Shown here piece after piece: positions 5,981 through 36,176 of a DNA stretch of 64,000 nucleotides (the first letter of the stretch is position 1; each line of letters starts with the position of its first letter). Position numbers and translations under genes: made by a program. Source of the stretch: a phage; sequence record PZ386955.1. One strand, written 5' to 3'. The notes below the pieces were generated by a model, which saw only the letters and a list, made by a program, of their open reading frames with translations, made no database searches and had not been told where the DNA came from.

Positions 5981-6928
5981 TTAGAAACAGTGCAGGAAGT
6001 TTCGACCATACTGCAAACCAATAGGAGCAAATGGGATATCATCATCGAAATCTTGAACAACAGGTTCTGGTTCTTTCGGTGCTGGCTCTTTCTTCTCTAC
6101 TTTTTTAGTTTCTTTCTTAACTTCTTGTACTGGGGTAGACATTCCACGGATAGCAGCAGCTACTTTATCAGACAAAGCAAGAACTTCACGAGCAGCTTCA
6201 ATAATCTCTTCTGCCGTTACAGTTTTACCTGTATGATCACGACAAGCGTTAAGAATTGCGTGTCCAACTGAAGCACCAAGATCATAGTCAGTCACATCAA
6301 CGCCACGATCTTTAGCAATTTCAGCTTTCAGAGTAACAGTTGCAGATTGTACCACACCAGCCAAGTCGAAAGCATCACCTTTCACACCAGCACGTAGAAG
6401 CTCCAGAGCGCCGTTTACAGCGTGTCCTGTTTCAATCCCTACGGTATCACGTTTTTTGTAGTTAGGCTTGCTACCTTCGTTATTAGATGGCTTATTTCCA
6501 CCTTTTGAAGAAGATTGCGCTTGCTGAACACCTTCTGTTGAAAGAACAGTGATTTTACCTTTAGAGGAGTTGTAGTATGTTTTGCCATTCCATTCGGAAG
6601 GTTTAACATCCATAGTTAGTTCTACACCTTTTTCGATAGTAACCCACTTGTCACCATCTTTAACTTGCAGGTTTTCATGTTCTGGATGCAGTTTAACTTC
6701 ACCTAGGCTAACCCAAACACCTTTATCATCAGCACCAGCACCTTTCTCTTTAATAAGCAGAGATGCTTTGTGAGTTGATTCAATTTTCTTATCTGGCTGA
6801 CCTGCAACCTTAATATAAGAGACTTTCATTTCATCAAACTTATCCAGTTTGACATATTCAACGATACCTTCAGCCCAGAATGCTTCTTTTTTAGTACGAC
6901 GGTCGATTTCAGAATTAATTACTGGCAT
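5981..6928 (-). CDS. putative ssDNA-binding / replication accessory protein with SSB-like acidic DDDIPF motif
   Basis: 315 aa; Lys/Glu-rich linker then DFDDDIPF near C-terminus (SSB-tail hallmark, but 15 aa from the end). Confidence 0.35.
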   Translation of the reverse strand: MPVINSEIDRRTKKEAFWAEGIVEYVKLDKFDEMKVSYIKVAGQPDKKIESTHKASLLIKEKGAGADDKGVWVSLGEVKLHPEHENLQVKDGDKWVTIEKGVELTMDVKPSEWNGKTYYNSSKGKITVLSTEGVQQAQSSSKGGNKPSNNEGSKPNYKKRDTVGIETGHAVNGALELLRAGVKGDAFDLAGVVQSATVTLKAEIAKDRGVDVTDYDLGASVGHAILNACRDHTGKTVTAEEIIEAAREVLALSDKVAAAIRGMSTPVQEVKKETKKVEKKEPAPKEPEPVVQDFDDDIPFAPIGLQYGRNFLHCF

Positions 6929-6944
6929 AAATTCTCCTCTATAA

Positions 6945-7343
6945 TTACATTACTTTAACACAAAACTCTCGTAAAAGAGTAGCGTCAGTTTCTTCCAACA
7001 GGTATTTACCAAGACCAATACCAAATCCTATTTCACCACTTTCGAAATGGAGGATTTGTATCTTTTCTCCACCAAGGTTAATTACTTTTGCTTTTCCAGG
7101 ATTATCCAAAACATCTCGTATTGTATCCTGTAGTAGCATTAGTTCACGTTTTGTGATAGTGGTTTCAGATATCTCTTTGTTTTCTACTCTCACTGTTAAA
7201 CGATTGTATCCACCAAAGAGACATAGTATTTGAATAAAAAAGGTATTATCTTGAGGTTCAACATCTTTTTTAGTTAGCTCAAGACGATTAGTTTCTCTAC
7301 TATAGAACGTCTCGACTAAGATTTTAGAACGATTATCTGTCAT
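6945..7343 (-). CDS. hypothetical protein
   Basis: 132-aa ORF in co-directional gene block. Confidence 0.5.
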   Translation of the reverse strand: MTDNRSKILVETFYSRETNRLELTKKDVEPQDNTFFIQILCLFGGYNRLTVRVENKEISETTITKRELMLLQDTIRDVLDNPGKAKVINLGGEKIQILHFESGEIGFGIGLGKYLLEETDATLLREFCVKVM

Positions 7344-7386
7344 TCAAGTCCTCATAATAACACATAATTATAATGTTTGTCAACAC

Positions 7387-7980
7387 TTAAATTTTAAATT
7401 CTTCATTGTTAAATGAATCCAGTGTACGTACTTCTGGCTCTTTGGGAATGAAAACGTCTTTTACAAAGCGGAACATAGGGAAACGTTCTGCCATTTTACG
7501 GACGTGTGCTTCTTTACCTGTGTATCGGTGATTAATAGTACAAATATTAGTTTTCAGTGCAAATTCAAAATCTGGATGATATACATAATTTTGACCATCC
7601 CAGTAACACAAGCAAATAGCTACATCAAAGTTCCATACGATTTCACTGCGTACACCTTCTTCCATGATCATAAAGTTAAACTTAAGATCTTTATAGTATG
7701 CTTCAAATACCCATTTCAAATGTGGTAGTTCGGCATAAGTGTGTTCTGTTTGCTTAGTAAGTTGTTTAACATTACGTGCACCAACACCCAACATCAAAAA
7801 CTTCTCTACTAGCACGAGTGTATTGTGGTTAGGCATACGCAAGTAAATGTCAATGTCTTGTGCAGGTTTCTCTAATCGCCAATCACGTACAGCGCCGCCA
7901 GCTACAATTGCAAACGGATCTACCAGTTGGCACATACGTAATACTTCTAAAGCGCGTACTTTTTGATCTTCAATATTCAT
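7387..7980 (-). CDS. nucleotidyltransferase, pol-beta superfamily (CCA-adding / poly(A) polymerase head-domain type)
   Basis: GGAVRD...DIDI motif (hG[GS]-x12-DxD) at residues ~27-45; only 197 aa. Confidence 0.55.
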   Translation of the reverse strand: MNIEDQKVRALEVLRMCQLVDPFAIVAGGAVRDWRLEKPAQDIDIYLRMPNHNTLVLVEKFLMLGVGARNVKQLTKQTEHTYAELPHLKWVFEAYYKDLKFNFMIMEEGVRSEIVWNFDVAICLCYWDGQNYVYHPDFEFALKTNICTINHRYTGKEAHVRKMAERFPMFRFVKDVFIPKEPEVRTLDSFNNEEFKI

Positions 7981-8117
7981 ATTTTCTCCTATCTCTTATG
8001 GTCTTTGCGTTATTCTAGATGTTCAAACATCTAATTATGAAATGGTTTAAAAGTGTGGAACAACCTTGGCAATAACAGATTGTCCCACATAAAAACTCCT
8101 TTAAAATCAAATAGATA

Positions 8118-10697
8118 CTAGTGACAACTGGCCCATGAGTTACCAACATCGTAACCAGCAGTGAGAGGTACATTAAGATTGTAATACTCACCAGCTTTAT
8201 TAACAGCAATAGATGCTAATTCTCCAGCACGACTGTAGGCTGTAAACCAACCACCTTTCGGAGATTCATGTACGTTAGCCCAAATCTTGCCAGTACGTTT
8301 CTCTTCCTCTTCTTTCCAGGCATTAACTTTATCCAAACATTCTTTATCAATTTTCTTTTGTTCTTCTGGATCATCAACTTGAGTCCAACCTAAAGATTCT
8401 TTAGAGAACCATTTAAAATGCACCAGATCACGAGTTACTTCAAGCTGTGCTTCATCGTGGTATGCAATCATTTGTTGAACGAATGACTTATTTTTCCAGT
8501 CATCAACAAAAAAGTCAACAGCTAATCCTTCTTCTTCGATAAGATCGTCGTAGATAACCATTGCTCTTTTTGCACAAATAACACCACCACTCTGGAACAG
8601 AGAGTTAAGTATTGCGTGTGCAGATCGTGTAGGTACTTTTCTACCATCAATACCGAGAATGTATTTCTTACCTGTTTTAACCCAAAAATCATGCAGACGT
8701 TCTTTAAGAAGCGCAAGAGGTTTTGCAGCTTCCCAGAAAGCATCGTATACAAGCTGTCCTGTATACATATCACTACCAATAGTTTTTGCTACTTTTGCAG
8801 CTTGAGCACCATAAGTAATACCATACTTAACAGATTTAGCAGGGCTTCGTTCAAACTTACGACCAATAGTATCAGAAATACGTCGAGCCATCATTGTATG
8901 AACATCATTAGGTTTTTCCAACAATAGAGCATTACAATATTCGTGTGGTTCCTGCTCGTACCGCCAACAGTAGTGTGATTCTATTTTTGCCTCAAGAGAA
9001 TCAAAGTCATAACCAATTTGGAAGTATTTTGGAACTTCTACACCAAATAAGTTACGCATTTCATACCCGTACAAAGATGTTACACGTGGGATGTTTGCTA
9101 CTAACCTATGTTTCATACGAGACGTAGCTGCATCACACGTTGCAGCAGGAGTTGGTATACGACCATCAGCCCTTACTGCCGCCAGATACCCTTTATCATA
9201 ATCCTCTTCATCTTCTTCCCAATCAGCACCACCACCTAGAATAGAGTTTCTACGATGTTTATACGTAAGATACTGCACAATCTGCGTAGCATAAGGAAAC
9301 TTTTCACCTAGTGCTTCCAAGTTAGGACAAATATCCTTCTCTTGCCCTTTTGTAAAGGAAGGGTTAGTAAGCACTTTAACACCACGACCTTTAGCTTTAG
9401 CAATACGATCTCTTAGTTTCCATTCCAAAGTTTCTGGTGTGCACTCCAGATGATCACATCTATCCTGGCAGAAGTTAGATGCTAATGTTTGATCAACATA
9501 GTCACGAATAGCTTTCTCCATTTGTGCTTCATCTTTCTTAATCTTAGTGCCAGATTTAAGAGTGATATCTTTATCTTTATATTCAGATGGACTCCAACCT
9601 AAACCAACTAACCAATTTTTAATATGTGTAGTGTCATCTAAAGTAGCAGGTACTGTAGGATCACAAATAGGTTCTTCTGCTGGAATAGGTAGTTTAAACT
9701 CTTTACCTAATGCAAATAACCACCAACCATCTTCTTTTTGTACAAGTTCACCAGAATGTTTCTCTGCAAACTTTATCATGTTACTTGAAGGTTCACCATT
9801 CTTTTTAAACTGTAGTTTAGGTGGAATGAATGATTTCAAATAACCTTTAGTAGCAGGTTTAGGAGGTAGCACAGGTTCTGCCTCTAAACGACATGCTTCC
9901 ATTCGAGCATCCAGATCACGAATATTATCTTCTGCTTGTTTCATATTGAAAGCAAAGCCACGGTGCTCTTGACGTGTAATAATATCAGCTACACGTTGTT
10001 CTAAGTTAAATGGTTCAGACCACTTATTATAATCACCCCACTCTTCCATCAAATAACGGAACACTGCGGTGTTAGCTTTGTTATCGTAAATACAGTAATA
10101 CAGCATATCTGCTGCAAATGTTTTAAATCTTTCAGTTTCAGGAATGTTTTTTCTAAAATCAATTTTAACATCCCCTCCAGCTTTCTTAGATAACTCTGCC
10201 AGACTATGACCACCGAAGCGATCAGGGTTTAGTGTCTTACTTAAGATCATAGTATCACAAATTTCAATGTTACTATTACCCCAAGTATTGTACTTAATAC
10301 TGTAGTTGAGTTTAAAAAATAATTTAATTGCCAGTAAGTCGAAGTTAATGATGTTGTGTCCAACTACTTTGGTAATTTTATAGTTTGAATTACCTTTAAA
10401 TTTACCTGTTCCATTTACAAAATCAGGAAAATCTTTAAGAGGGAAATGGGTATATTCTAAATGCTCATATTCCTCCAGTCGGTATTCATACTTTCCGTCA
10501 GTCTCAATATACGGACGACCATCGAAAAGATATTTATCACCATCATGGAAAGCAATAATCTCTCCAGTATCATGACTTTCGCACACAATACAGTGCATTG
10601 CAAAACTATCTTTTAAACGATATGGACTTGCCAAGTAATCTACACTTTCGTCATTAAGCAAGTTGTTACTTTCAATGTCGAAAGTAAAAGCTCCCAT
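8118..10697 (-). CDS. DNA polymerase, family A, with 3'-5' exonuclease domain
   Basis: 859 aa; Exo I FDIES; motif A YDFDSLEAKI; motif B RSPAKSVKYGITYG; motif C YHDE. Confidence 0.9.
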   Translation of the reverse strand: MGAFTFDIESNNLLNDESVDYLASPYRLKDSFAMHCIVCESHDTGEIIAFHDGDKYLFDGRPYIETDGKYEYRLEEYEHLEYTHFPLKDFPDFVNGTGKFKGNSNYKITKVVGHNIINFDLLAIKLFFKLNYSIKYNTWGNSNIEICDTMILSKTLNPDRFGGHSLAELSKKAGGDVKIDFRKNIPETERFKTFAADMLYYCIYDNKANTAVFRYLMEEWGDYNKWSEPFNLEQRVADIITRQEHRGFAFNMKQAEDNIRDLDARMEACRLEAEPVLPPKPATKGYLKSFIPPKLQFKKNGEPSSNMIKFAEKHSGELVQKEDGWWLFALGKEFKLPIPAEEPICDPTVPATLDDTTHIKNWLVGLGWSPSEYKDKDITLKSGTKIKKDEAQMEKAIRDYVDQTLASNFCQDRCDHLECTPETLEWKLRDRIAKAKGRGVKVLTNPSFTKGQEKDICPNLEALGEKFPYATQIVQYLTYKHRRNSILGGGADWEEDEEDYDKGYLAAVRADGRIPTPAATCDAATSRMKHRLVANIPRVTSLYGYEMRNLFGVEVPKYFQIGYDFDSLEAKIESHYCWRYEQEPHEYCNALLLEKPNDVHTMMARRISDTIGRKFERSPAKSVKYGITYGAQAAKVAKTIGSDMYTGQLVYDAFWEAAKPLALLKERLHDFWVKTGKKYILGIDGRKVPTRSAHAILNSLFQSGGVICAKRAMVIYDDLIEEEGLAVDFFVDDWKNKSFVQQMIAYHDEAQLEVTRDLVHFKWFSKESLGWTQVDDPEEQKKIDKECLDKVNAWKEEEEKRTGKIWANVHESPKGGWFTAYSRAGELASIAVNKAGEYYNLNVPLTAGYDVGNSWASCH

Positions 10698-33130: not shown

Positions 33131-33703
33131 TTATTTGCTAATGCTTTGAATCTTATTTACAACACGGTTTATTGCCAGTGAAGCCCTAGGTTCCGCAATA
33201 CCTGTTGCATAGATATAAGGATGACCTTTTGGAGACTCCCTCATACCGAATGAACCTAATTCTAAACCATATTCATCCTCTACGTCAACCCCAATATTAG
33301 TGGGTACTAAATATGTTTTAACTCCATAATAAGTAGAGAAGAAACAGCGCATAGAGTTAGCATACTCTTCAATTGTAGCATCAGGGTAGAACTCAATCAA
33401 CTCCAATTTCAAGAAAATATTAAAATGGGTATCATCTAAATTTTCTTCTGTGCGGTAACATGGTGTTAGTGCCATATACGGATTACCTACTGCAAATTCA
33501 AAACCATCCTTCTCCATTTGCAGGAAAGATTGTTCTGCACTAGCTACATAGTATTTACCGTTAGGATGCCCTAATGGGCGATCCTCTTTATTTTCTGGTA
33601 GTGTGTACGCCAGTATATCAGCATCCACGAGATATGGAACTTCCAACATTTGTGCAAACCGACCATAGTAATCAATAGCTTGAGCTATTACTGCAACATT
33701 CAT
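33131..33703 (-). CDS. hypothetical protein
   Basis: 190-aa ORF; weak resemblance to class II aaRS-like core (CYRTEE, GIAEPRASLAINR) not verifiable here. Confidence 0.5.
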   Translation of the reverse strand: MNVAVIAQAIDYYGRFAQMLEVPYLVDADILAYTLPENKEDRPLGHPNGKYYVASAEQSFLQMEKDGFEFAVGNPYMALTPCYRTEENLDDTHFNIFLKLELIEFYPDATIEEYANSMRCFFSTYYGVKTYLVPTNIGVDVEDEYGLELGSFGMRESPKGHPYIYATGIAEPRASLAINRVVNKIQSISK

Positions 33704-33951
33704 GATCGACCTCCATTGCGGAATGCACGTTTAGTAATGTTTGACATAGTGATCAAATCTTGAAGCGTCATACCAGGAAAATGCTGTTCAAGAACACCTT
33801 CAACAGCGCCTACAATATCTGATAACTCAATAAGTTGCATCAGCTTGCAATCTTGATCAATAGCATCTTGAAGTTCATAAAGCTCTTCTTGAATCTTAGC
33901 AACAGAACCATATTCCTCTTTGCTAATCTCCTTCAAATGATACCCTGCCAC
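33700..33951 (-). CDS. small helical protein, possibly MazG-like nucleotide pyrophosphohydrolase
   Basis: EELYELQDAI...ELSDIVGAVEGVL pattern. Confidence 0.35.
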   Translation of the reverse strand: MAGYHLKEISKEEYGSVAKIQEELYELQDAIDQDCKLMQLIELSDIVGAVEGVLEQHFPGMTLQDLITMSNITKRAFRNGGRS

Positions 33952-33961
33952 TTTAACCCCC

Positions 33962-35698
33962 TTAGTTTACCAGTTTATTTATATCTGGTAAAAGATTTAT
34001 TTCACCTAAAAAATCACCTTCACCTTCCTCTAACCAACTCTCATATGCTTGTGCATGATTATAGTTACCATCAAAAGAATCTGCAACAAATTTTTCTACA
34101 GCTTTTCGAGATGTGCCAGCGCCAAATACACCAAGTTTAATACCATTGATCGGTAAAGTGGTACTTGTGGGTACTTTCTCTGTTGCAACACGGTTGATAT
34201 CTATAATCTCCTGTACGGTTGTGTTCCATTGTAAGCATTTAACACAACGGGTATGCGCTACATACAGTAGGTTTCGCTCTGCCTCTTCCAGTCCTACCCA
34301 TTCACCAGTCTTTTTATCATAGTTGGAAGGAAAATCATTAGCAACAATAACCTGATCCCACTCCAAACCTTTAGACTTGTGTGCTGTAGTAAGTGTGACT
34401 TTTGCTGTAGGAGAATTTCTGTGCGTTCTAAGTGTATGTGCTATGGTGTTCGCCTTACCAGAAACTACGATGTTTAACAAGCGTTTAGCATCTGGATCAG
34501 CCTCTGCACACTCAACAAATTCATCCCAGTCTGCGTAAGGTAATACAGTTTCATGTTTTACTTTCTCAATATCTCCTCTACGAAGAGCATTAACACTATC
34601 TACCATAGAGATAAAATCCCTGGTATCTACGTTAATAATAATTTCTTCCCCATCTGCAATACGATCCATTGCCTCCATAAGCAAGGTTAAATTCTTGCGA
34701 AAGATGATAGTGTAAGGTTTTGTATAGTCTACAACATCTGATTTGTAGCTACCTACTACAGTATCAAAGCCTTTACCAACCAAAGGGTGACGCAAAGGTT
34801 CTTTATCGCTTAAAATCATATTGGCAATGTTTGCCACTTTTGGGCCAAAACGGAAGCAAGCAGTTAATGGAAGCTCTGCCCCATATGTAGATGTTTCCTT
34901 CATCATATTTTGGCTTCCACGGAACTGGTAGATGCTCTGATATTCGTCACCCACCACTACTACTTGTTTTGCAGATTTAGCATTTCGCAGAATAGACAAG
35001 AATGCAGGGTTAACATCCTGGAATTCATCACCAAAAATAATATCATAACCAAGATCAGCACCAGACAATTCAAACAATTTTACATAGGTGTCATGCGTCA
35101 TCAAAGTATCTGTGTTAGGATCGATGCGCTCTCGCCACAATTGTTTTGCATACTTAACTACTTCTGTAATTAGTTTGTGTTCGTTAATACCTTTTCTTTT
35201 AATATCTGCAAGATGTACACTAGGAAAATGTTTACGGCTGATAAAAGGATCATCCGAAAATTCAAACTTACCTACGGTTTGTTTGATCATTAAACCAATC
35301 ATAGCACGAGTTAAAAGTGTTTTCCCTCGTTTATCAATAAGATTATTAATCTTAAATTTCTTTGCTATTTCGCTACCTGTACCTGCAACGTTAACATACT
35401 GTCCTTCTGGTCGTGACAGTTTTGCACGTAAACGATGATCCAGGAATTGATAGCAAATAGAATGCAATGTACGGCATTCTACATTTAGTGGCATCTTACG
35501 TCGTGCTTCTTCTGCCATGCTTTTATTGAAAGCTAAGTAAAGAATGCGATCTTCTGTACTGTTAGCCAGCAAATAAAGTGTTGACGTTTTGCCTGATCCA
35601 GATTTAGCTTGGATAGTTAAAAAGCGATGGTCTGGAAAAGCCTCCTTAATAGCTGTTTGCTCTTCTGTTGGAGTGAAGCTCAACTCTTTCTTAGCCAT
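33962..35698 (-). CDS. superfamily 1 DNA helicase (UvrD/Rep-like)
   Basis: Motif I AKSGSGKT, motif II GDEFQDVN, motif III VVVGDEYQSIYQFRGS; start at ATG 35698. Confidence 0.8.
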   Translation of the reverse strand: MAKKELSFTPTEEQTAIKEAFPDHRFLTIQAKSGSGKTSTLYLLANSTEDRILYLAFNKSMAEEARRKMPLNVECRTLHSICYQFLDHRLRAKLSRPEGQYVNVAGTGSEIAKKFKINNLIDKRGKTLLTRAMIGLMIKQTVGKFEFSDDPFISRKHFPSVHLADIKRKGINEHKLITEVVKYAKQLWRERIDPNTDTLMTHDTYVKLFELSGADLGYDIIFGDEFQDVNPAFLSILRNAKSAKQVVVVGDEYQSIYQFRGSQNMMKETSTYGAELPLTACFRFGPKVANIANMILSDKEPLRHPLVGKGFDTVVGSYKSDVVDYTKPYTIIFRKNLTLLMEAMDRIADGEEIIINVDTRDFISMVDSVNALRRGDIEKVKHETVLPYADWDEFVECAEADPDAKRLLNIVVSGKANTIAHTLRTHRNSPTAKVTLTTAHKSKGLEWDQVIVANDFPSNYDKKTGEWVGLEEAERNLLYVAHTRCVKCLQWNTTVQEIIDINRVATEKVPTSTTLPINGIKLGVFGAGTSRKAVEKFVADSFDGNYNHAQAYESWLEEGEGDFLGEINLLPDINKLVN

Positions 35699-35699
35699 T

Positions 35700-36176
35700 T
35701 CAACCTCTCTTAATTTGTTTAACAAGCATAGGAACAAAATCTCGTTTTAAAATTTGTTCAATAATATGATCAGGTAGCTGTTGGAAATTATAATTAAAAG
35801 CTACTGTCTCACCTTTAGGTGTTTCTACCCGCACATATAACATGTTACGAAGTTTATCCACTTGTGCTGTATATTCTAAACCATGTAATTGATGCATTGC
35901 AAACATCAAATCATCAGTTTCAGTTTGGAATCTATCATTTGCTTGCATTAAAGACAAGGTAAAAGGTAGATTTTCCCTAAGAGCCACCTTCTTAGGAACT
36001 AGTGAAGGAAAATACTCACCAATAACTTCCTGTGTAAGCTGGATACACTCTTTTTCAAGTTGGTTTTGTTCCTTAAGTTCACAAACACTTTTTTGTAAAG
36101 TGTTAACCTCTTTTTGCAAAGCTGCTAGTTGAGCACTTAACTTTCTTTTTTGATTACGACCAAAACGTTTAGACAT
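35700..36176 (-). CDS. hypothetical coiled-coil protein
   Basis: 158-aa ORF. Confidence 0.5.
   Translation of the reverse strand: MSKRFGRNQKRKLSAQLAALQKEVNTLQKSVCELKEQNQLEKECIQLTQEVIGEYFPSLVPKKVALRENLPFTLSLMQANDRFQTETDDLMFAMHQLHGLEYTAQVDKLRNMLYVRVETPKGETVAFNYNFQQLPDHIIEQILKRDFVPMLVKQIKRG

Follow-up and report, generated by a model that had tools for sequence, protein, structure and literature searches.

Does a phage protein of 197 amino acids (aa) that carries the active-site signature of a CCA-adding enzyme act on the 3' ends of transfer RNA (tRNA), or does it belong to another branch of the nucleotidyltransferases? The question is raised by an open reading frame (ORF) in a 64,000-nucleotide stretch of phage DNA (sequence record PZ386955.1), referred to here as the window. 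In the initial annotation, made from the letters alone, the ORF was described as a minimal pol-beta nucleotidyltransferase (NTase). The ORF was confirmed by a codon-by-codon reading and by a regular-expression search. Its protein is homologous to the anti-Gabija factor Gad2, has the head fold of this enzyme class and carries an invariant GG...DxD site; on sequence grounds it would be better filed with the Gad2 / PHROG 1614 nucleotidyltransferases, as one of their short members that stand alone. The ORF and the elements of its protein that matter for this argument are listed below.

7387..7980, (-) strand: NTase ORF (equivalent to Phi92_gp158), 197 aa, ATG start; stand-alone Gad2-family (PF26128) / PHROG 1614 nucleotidyltransferase
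7846..7899, (-) strand: motif A, G28-G29-A-V-R32-D33, eight residues, D42-I-D44-I; loop binding nucleoside triphosphate (NTP) and metal, with the two catalytic aspartates (assigned by motif)
7702..7704, (-) strand: E93 on a predicted strand (residues 88-96, placed by the model); acidic in 83 of 99 homologues
7612..7632, (-) strand: N117-F-D119-V-A-I-C123, opposite 'FDFTVC' of Gad2 and 'RRD[FL]TIN' (motif B) of class II enzymes; of the RRD, only the Asp is retained
7477..7497, (-) strand: K162-M-A-E-R166-F167-P168, a conserved C-terminal helix aligning with 'KY..KGY' of Gad2 and loosely with class II 'R..RF' after motif D

In DNA sequence, the 7-kb stretch around the ORF matched phi92-like coliphages (Justusliebigvirus, Stephanstirmvirinae) with 98-99% identity. 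The ORF protein was 100% identical to Phi92_gp158 (gp158 below) and to orthologues in more than 20 further records, and was conserved at 98.5-100% across 56 phi92-type genomes. The identical proteins are annotated variously as 'hypothetical protein', 'nucleotidyltransferase' and 'putative tRNA nucleotidyl transferase/poly(A) polymerase', and the RefSeq label for Phi92_gp158 is 'nucleotidyltransferase'. The gene is already present in public records and its family is already in Pfam, and the ORF is an uncharacterised member of a known family.

Within motif A, GGAVRD corresponds to residues 28-33 (7882-7899) and DIDI to residues 42-45 (7846-7857). The motif had been recognised correctly, with a spacer given as nine residues; the spacer has eight (WRLEKPAQ), the same number as in Escherichia coli Cca (GGAVRD-ALLGLPVK-DRD). 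The motif is not a chance occurrence, because only about 3e-4 matches would be expected in a six-frame translation of 64 kb (a rough estimate) and because G28, G29, R32, D42 and D44 were invariant in all 99 aligned homologues. D21, A27 and W34 were likewise invariant. E93 is a candidate for the third metal-binding carboxylate. Conservation among the homologues was also high in the C-terminal helix, at 97% for K162, 87% for R/K166 and 99% for F/Y167, and Q102, F118 and W126 also count among the conserved residues of the family.

The structure of the ORF protein was predicted with AlphaFold2 from the 99-sequence alignment (mean pLDDT 90, pTM 0.83). A Foldseek comparison of this model with the PDB gave 37 matches at E<=1e-3 (best E 5.5e-6, query TM ~0.5), all of which were class II CCA-, CC- or A-adding enzymes or E. 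coli poly(A) polymerase I, and the predicted fold is a class-II-like pol-beta head. The resemblance to class II heads that had been proposed for this ORF thus held for motif A and for the fold, and failed for the profile score and for the later motifs. The hidden Markov model (HMM) search against the Pfam PolyA_pol head profile (PF01743), suggested earlier as a check, gave 19.1 bits (E 0.0017) over residues 26-81 only, which is below the gathering cut-off of 23, and the relatives of the ORF protein likewise remained below the gathering score. Sequence searches of the PDB with the ORF protein, the family profile, the Gad2 profile and a short Gad2 homologue returned nothing significant; the family profile reached CCA-adding enzymes at E 0.25 at best, over 40 residues. 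In hhalign comparisons the gp158 family was aligned with E. coli Cca over 42 N-terminal columns (12.5% probability) and with E. coli PcnB over 53 N-terminal columns (34% probability). NCBIfam gave just meaningless CCA matches of about 15 bits, and the PADLOC models matched with 0 families at E<=10. In these comparisons, sequence likeness to the class II enzymes stops after motif A.

In class II enzymes the RRD of motif B serves in recognition of the ribose 2'-OH and the triphosphate, the EDxxR of motif D is the amino-acid template that selects CTP or ATP, and the neck, body and tail hold the tRNA. No RRD and no EDxxR were found in the ORF protein by regular expression, and no conserved Arg pair was present in the 99 homologues. 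In a combined alignment of gp158, Gad2 and class II sequences, which joins very divergent sequences and is indicative only, the segment opposite RRD was W116-N117-F118-D119, in which the Asp alone corresponds, and the class II 'EDPLR' was aligned with the poorly conserved R152-Y-T-G-K156. The neck-body-tail architecture of about 350-450 aa was not present: the ORF protein has 197 aa and no additional Pfam domain, so that the absence of a body domain was rightly noted at the outset (class II enzymes have about 400 aa). Compared with the class II enzymes and poly(A) polymerase I (PF01743; PDB 3aql, 4wby, 3h37, 1miv), the ORF protein is half the size and lacks motif D, neck, body and tail. As it has no Arg-Arg ribose sensor, no EDxxR template, no body and no tail, it would not build CCA by the class II mechanism. 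A stand-alone bacterial protein of comparable size is available in PDB 2la3 (S. pneumoniae NP_344798.1), a 191-aa 'CCA-adding enzyme head domain' of unassigned function, which has 9% identity to the ORF protein; neither the gp158 profile nor the Gad2 profile picked it up in sequence searches.

The relationship to Gad2 extends further along the protein. Gad2 (Gabija anti-defence 2) was discovered in Bacillus phage SPbetaL7, in which its knockout results in a Gabija-sensitive phage, and a 394-aa homologue from a Brevibacillus laterosporus prophage abolishes Gabija defence; an NTase domain is predicted in Gad2 by AlphaFold, and the SPbetaL7 protein is toxic on expression (Yirmiya et al., bioRxiv 10.1101/2023.05.01.538930). 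The Gad2 homologue sequences used here were taken from Supplementary Table 10 of the discoverers, which itself contains short members, from S. suis (214 aa), Schlesneria (228 aa, with GGSLRD) and Rhizobium (278 aa). When the gp158 family was aligned by hhalign with eight Gad2 homologues, the probability was 97.1% (E 4.9e-11) over 124 columns, matching gp158 residues 12-152 to Gad2 residues 17-143; against the verified B. laterosporus Gad2 alone it was 89.6% (E 1.9e-6) over 123 columns. The HMM of the gp158 family, run with hmmsearch, matched 118 of 120 Gad2-type proteins with up to 25.9 bits, versus 8.3 bits for E. coli PcnB and no match for Cca. In the reverse direction, an HMM built from the eight Gad2 sequences matched 240 of 252 short-family proteins, with 21 bits for gp158, and left E. 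coli PcnB and Cca unmatched.

Family assignments were concordant with these comparisons. In PHROGs the ORF protein was assigned to phrog_1614 'nucleotidyltransferase' (E 2e-34, residues 7-193), and it also falls in 10174. A precomputed match to PF26128 'Gad2' (E<=1e-5) was present on the 99%-identical cluster representative of the ORF protein, and the same domain was carried by 56 of the 120 listed relatives and by each of the 120 top-ranking relatives of the published Gad2 set, which include proteins 90-94% identical to the tested B. laterosporus Gad2. The two groups are homologous in the N-terminal NTase core over about 125-150 residues, are both phage-encoded, and share the motifs AGG-x12-DxD, FDxx[VI]C and [HE]DF as well as a Q-x-[MI] on the strand preceding the loop. 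Because of the profile comparisons, the presence of PF26128 on all 120 Gad2 relatives and these common motifs, the gp158 family is closer to Gad2 than to the tRNA nucleotidyltransferases. It is a sister subfamily of the verified Gad2 and not part of the same subfamily. The loop is GGTITS in the verified Gad2 and GGAVRD in gp158, which keeps the Arg-Asp, and gp158 is encoded in a replication module, whereas the SPbetaL7 Gad2 is in the SPbeta anti-Gabija locus.

The short form is widespread. An exhaustive profile search gave 2,891 representatives (at 50% identity) at E<=1e-3 and 1,126 at E<=1e-10. Among the top 150, almost every protein had 170-250 aa, and the median in the family alignment was 210 aa. 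Many structural twins of 167-230 aa were found in BFVD, in Autographiviridae and other phages, under the names 'Poly A polymerase head domain protein' or 'nucleotidyltransferase'. A shortened homologue occurs in Vibrio phage ICP1, the ORF223 of which (L002:4959-5378; phrog_10174) has 139 aa, with GG...DxD kept and the C-terminal third missing, and lies near DNA ligase and methyltransferase genes, not near a polymerase gene. Searches of the literature for biochemical work on the short members returned none, and two members have been reported as harmful to cells. Gp22 of Klebsiella phage fHe-Kpn01 (182 aa; phrog_1614, E 1e-39), the gene of which comes immediately behind that of the DNA polymerase, is toxic in E. 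coli; it resembles gp158 in PHROG, size, post-polymerase position and a weak, sub-threshold PolyA_pol match, and differs in having about 18% identity to it. Gp22 of Pseudomonas phage Emajogi, annotated 'nucleotidyltransferase' and with relatives annotated as Gad2 family, was cytotoxic at high induction.

The gene lies in the following surroundings in the window.

7986-7990, (-) strand: Shine-Dalgarno sequence AGGAG, 5 nt before the ATG of the NTase ORF; the same ribosome-binding site is annotated in phi92
8118..10697, (-) strand: gene for a family-A DNA polymerase (Pfam DNA_pol_A, E 3e-13), next upstream and in the same orientation
6945..7343, (-) strand: conserved 132-aa protein, phrog_16560, with no assigned function; always downstream of the NTase in Stephanstirmvirinae-type phages
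5981..6928, (-) strand: conserved 315-aa protein, phrog_4477; some related records list 'single-stranded DNA-binding protein' among the features of the region

The position beside a DNA polymerase gene, as initially annotated, was borne out, with a gap of 137 nt between the two genes. In phages FKP3, PsgM04F and phAPEC8 the order was DNA polymerase, 1-3 small ORFs, NTase, a protein of about 132 aa and one of about 300 aa, and the window and phi92 shared this order except that they had no small ORFs there. The homologue of Bordetella phage BB8 was located between the primase/helicase and polymerase genes, and that of a Zobellviridae phage within about 3 kb of a putative polymerase gene, which is itself annotated only as 'ribonuclease H-like domain protein'. 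The metagenomic contexts included DnaB with Thy1; 5'-3' exonuclease with RusA, NrdD, MazG and dNMP kinase; and DNA ligase with a methylase. In others the gene was found among small early genes without assigned function. About 10 of the 14 contexts inspected were modules of DNA replication, recombination or nucleotide metabolism. Universal adjacency to the DNA polymerase gene was ruled out by eight metagenomic contexts, and holds in several lineages only. The G+C content of the NTase gene (37.2%) was close to that of the window (37.8%). A scan for promoters and terminators around the gene gave counts no higher than in shuffled sequence. A near-consensus sigma-70-type promoter was present at 7354-7383 on the (-) strand (TTGACA, 18 nt, TATTAT; 11 of 12 matches, with TG before the -10), between the NTase stop codon and the 132-aa ORF, in a region in which the promoter-like total did not exceed that of the shuffles.

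What, then, might the protein do? The most likely reading, which we put forward tentatively, is that it is an active Gad2-type counter-defence enzyme. It would be a catalytically competent single-domain NTase, made of a class-II-like pol-beta head with a short helical/beta extension, in which the GG loop with D42 and D44, and probably E93, would bind an NTP or deoxynucleoside triphosphate (dNTP) with Mg2+. Transfer of a nucleoside monophosphate to an acceptor hydroxyl would proceed by a two-metal mechanism, and the candidate acceptors are a DNA 3' end, an RNA 3' end, a second nucleotide or a protein. As the Arg-Arg and EDxxR are missing, the selection of ribose and base must differ from that of CCA-adding enzymes, and dNTPs may be accepted. 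The protein could act as an early or middle enzyme, expressed with the replication genes, which blunts a host defence of the Gabija type that monitors DNA ends or nucleotide pools. A more specific proposal seems unlikely as it stands: the 197-aa protein would be the catalytic domain of Gad2 reduced to its minimum, kept beside the replication genes of thousands of virulent phages because it adds a nucleotide to a DNA end, or produces a nucleotide, and so blinds nucleases that sense ends or nucleotides, Gabija for example.

Several points weigh against a Gad2-type counter-defence role. BLASTP of gp158 against the verified Gad2 gave E 1e-5 with an identity of only 24% over 117 residues, and the verified Gad2 belongs to a different PHROG (phrog_18122) with a weak match to phrog_1614 (2.3e-6). 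The PF26128 assignment is based on precomputed matches and on our own profile comparisons. The alignment stops at about residue 143 of Gad2. The verified proteins continue to 394-400 aa, and their C-terminal ~230 residues, which may carry the anti-Gabija specificity, are missing from gp158. Assays of Gad2 activity have been performed in Bacillus only, and the mechanism of Gad2 was listed as unknown in a review of February 2026. Furthermore, the gp158 gene belongs to the replication module, in which it is conserved and syntenic, and not to a variable anti-defence island.

The tRNA-directed function first imagined for this ORF was weighed in its wider form, in which untemplated nucleotide addition would mend tRNA tails trimmed by host nucleases or tail RNAs in the manner of a poly(A) polymerase. 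This would fit with the closest solved structures, all of which are class II RNA 3'-end polymerases, and with a GGAVRD-x8-DxD spacing equal to that of E. coli Cca; defences that cleave tRNA tails do exist (Cas12a3), and uncontrolled tailing of RNA or tRNA would suit the toxicity of the relatives. The protein, however, has neither RRD nor EDxxR, neither body nor tail, its PolyA_pol score is below threshold, and the class II similarity is gone beyond about 50 residues. No tRNA genes were found in the 64-kb window. In the sister phage VEcB, which has 16 tRNA genes (L010:43823-47020), the 3' CCA is encoded in all 16, so that CCA need not be added to the phage tRNAs de novo; a Cca enzyme is also present in the E. 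coli host. A role in the maturation of phage tRNAs was ruled out on these grounds, namely the lack of tRNA genes in the window and the 16 CCA-encoding tRNA genes of VEcB. Partners for RNA repair, Rnl1 and PNK/HD, were not detected in the window or the VEcB genome by tblastn, a crude search with one query each. The sole context hinting at RNA repair was a metagenomic phage contig (L017:189-2215, 5001-5561), in which a 186-aa family member lies 3-4 kb downstream of genes for a T4-type RNA ligase 1 and a kinase/HD (PNK-like) protein; this favours the tailing or repair explanation. The family is carried by many phages of only about 40-47 kb (Autographiviridae, Zobellviridae), which may speak against it. 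Taken together, the stand-alone NTase of the initial annotation stood, and repair of tRNA 3' ends or tailing of RNA gained little, and we judge it improbable, though still worth holding in view.

The protein could also be a replication accessory, a terminal transferase that adds (d)NMPs to the DNA 3' ends or primers of a linear, terminally redundant genome alongside the T7-type DNA polymerase. In Stephanstirmvirinae and Autographiviridae its gene follows that of the family-A DNA polymerase directly or is separated from it by a few genes at most, and in the Zobellviridae phage it is within about 3 kb of the putative polymerase gene; DnaB, 5'-3' exonuclease, RusA and ligase are found in further contexts of the family, phi92 has terminal repeats, and loss of the Arg-Arg sensor of the ribose 2'-OH would allow the use of dNTPs, by analogy with established class II biochemistry. 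We regard this explanation as rather improbable, and it would overlap with the Gad2 reading if Gabija-type defences read DNA ends. Less probable still is that the protein makes a nucleotide product, a cyclic or linear dinucleotide or a polyphosphate, which jams or mimics an immune signal or a nucleotide-sensing nuclease. Other small phage-encoded pol-beta NTases, the MNT-like enzymes, are put to counter-defence use in this way, making 3'3'-cGAMP and c-di-AMP and inhibiting TIR-STING (Ho et al., bioRxiv 10.1101/2022.06.09.495361), and GajA of Gabija is described as a nucleotide-sensing endonuclease. The MNT-like enzymes are, however, a separate clade with the motif GS-x-AY[GAN]T-x4-SDxD, and membership of the ORF protein in the cyclic-dinucleotide-forming NTases of Ho et al. 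was ruled out, as it has no GS/SS dipeptide and no SDxD. Finally, it would be very surprising if the protein were a non-catalytic or decayed domain, with binding as its only activity or with no function. In the wider family E93 and D119 do vary, and the 139-aa form in ICP1 is truncated, but the strict invariance of the five active-site residues in 99 homologues, the ~2,900 family clusters at 50% identity and the near-complete conservation across the 56 phi92-type genomes all argue against decay. An active Gad2-type enzyme remains our preferred, if tentative, reading.

Further observations concern other genes of the window and of phi92. The phi92 DNA polymerase (1,104 aa; L001:8549-11863) has an in-frame insertion of 244 aa at residues 578-821, with flanks 99% identical to the window polymerase (8118-10697 (-), 859 aa), which lacks it; the insertion looks like an intein or other mobile insertion. 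A UvrD-like helicase ORF at 33962-35737 (-) of the window encodes 591 aa, compared with a 924-aa 'DNA helicase' at the equivalent place in phi92, and this difference in length (window 33962-35737 and 35700-36176, both (-)) could reflect a second phi92 insertion or a gene split in the window. An 83-aa ORF at 33700-33951 (-) matches phi92 gp197, annotated with a MazG-like fold, in length and syntenic position; a local Pfam scan of this ORF gave no match, and a MazG-like anti-TIR factor, Atd1, has been reported in Justusliebigvirus. In phi92, gp163-166 (L001:2822-5998) are four consecutive predicted glycosyltransferase genes, located a few kb from the replication genes, and their equivalent in the window is expected upstream of the primase/helicase gene.

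Gad2 is among the few anti-defence proteins thought to act enzymatically, and the ORF shows that its catalytic domain also occurs free-standing, at about 200 residues. With some 2,900 clusters at 50% identity, this short form is very common; in phi92-like phages and others it sits at the core of the replication module, and toxicity is on record for at least two relatives. If it does not act against Gabija or related systems, the databases over-extend the label 'Gad2 family', which would also be worth knowing. If it does counter Gabija or related systems, it would be a tractable model for the mechanism of Gad2, and anti-Gabija activity of the short form would have a bearing on the choice and engineering of therapeutic coliphages. 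Should the protein be the minimal core of Gad2, this small version would reveal how Gad2 works, together with a new class of enzymatic counter-defence.

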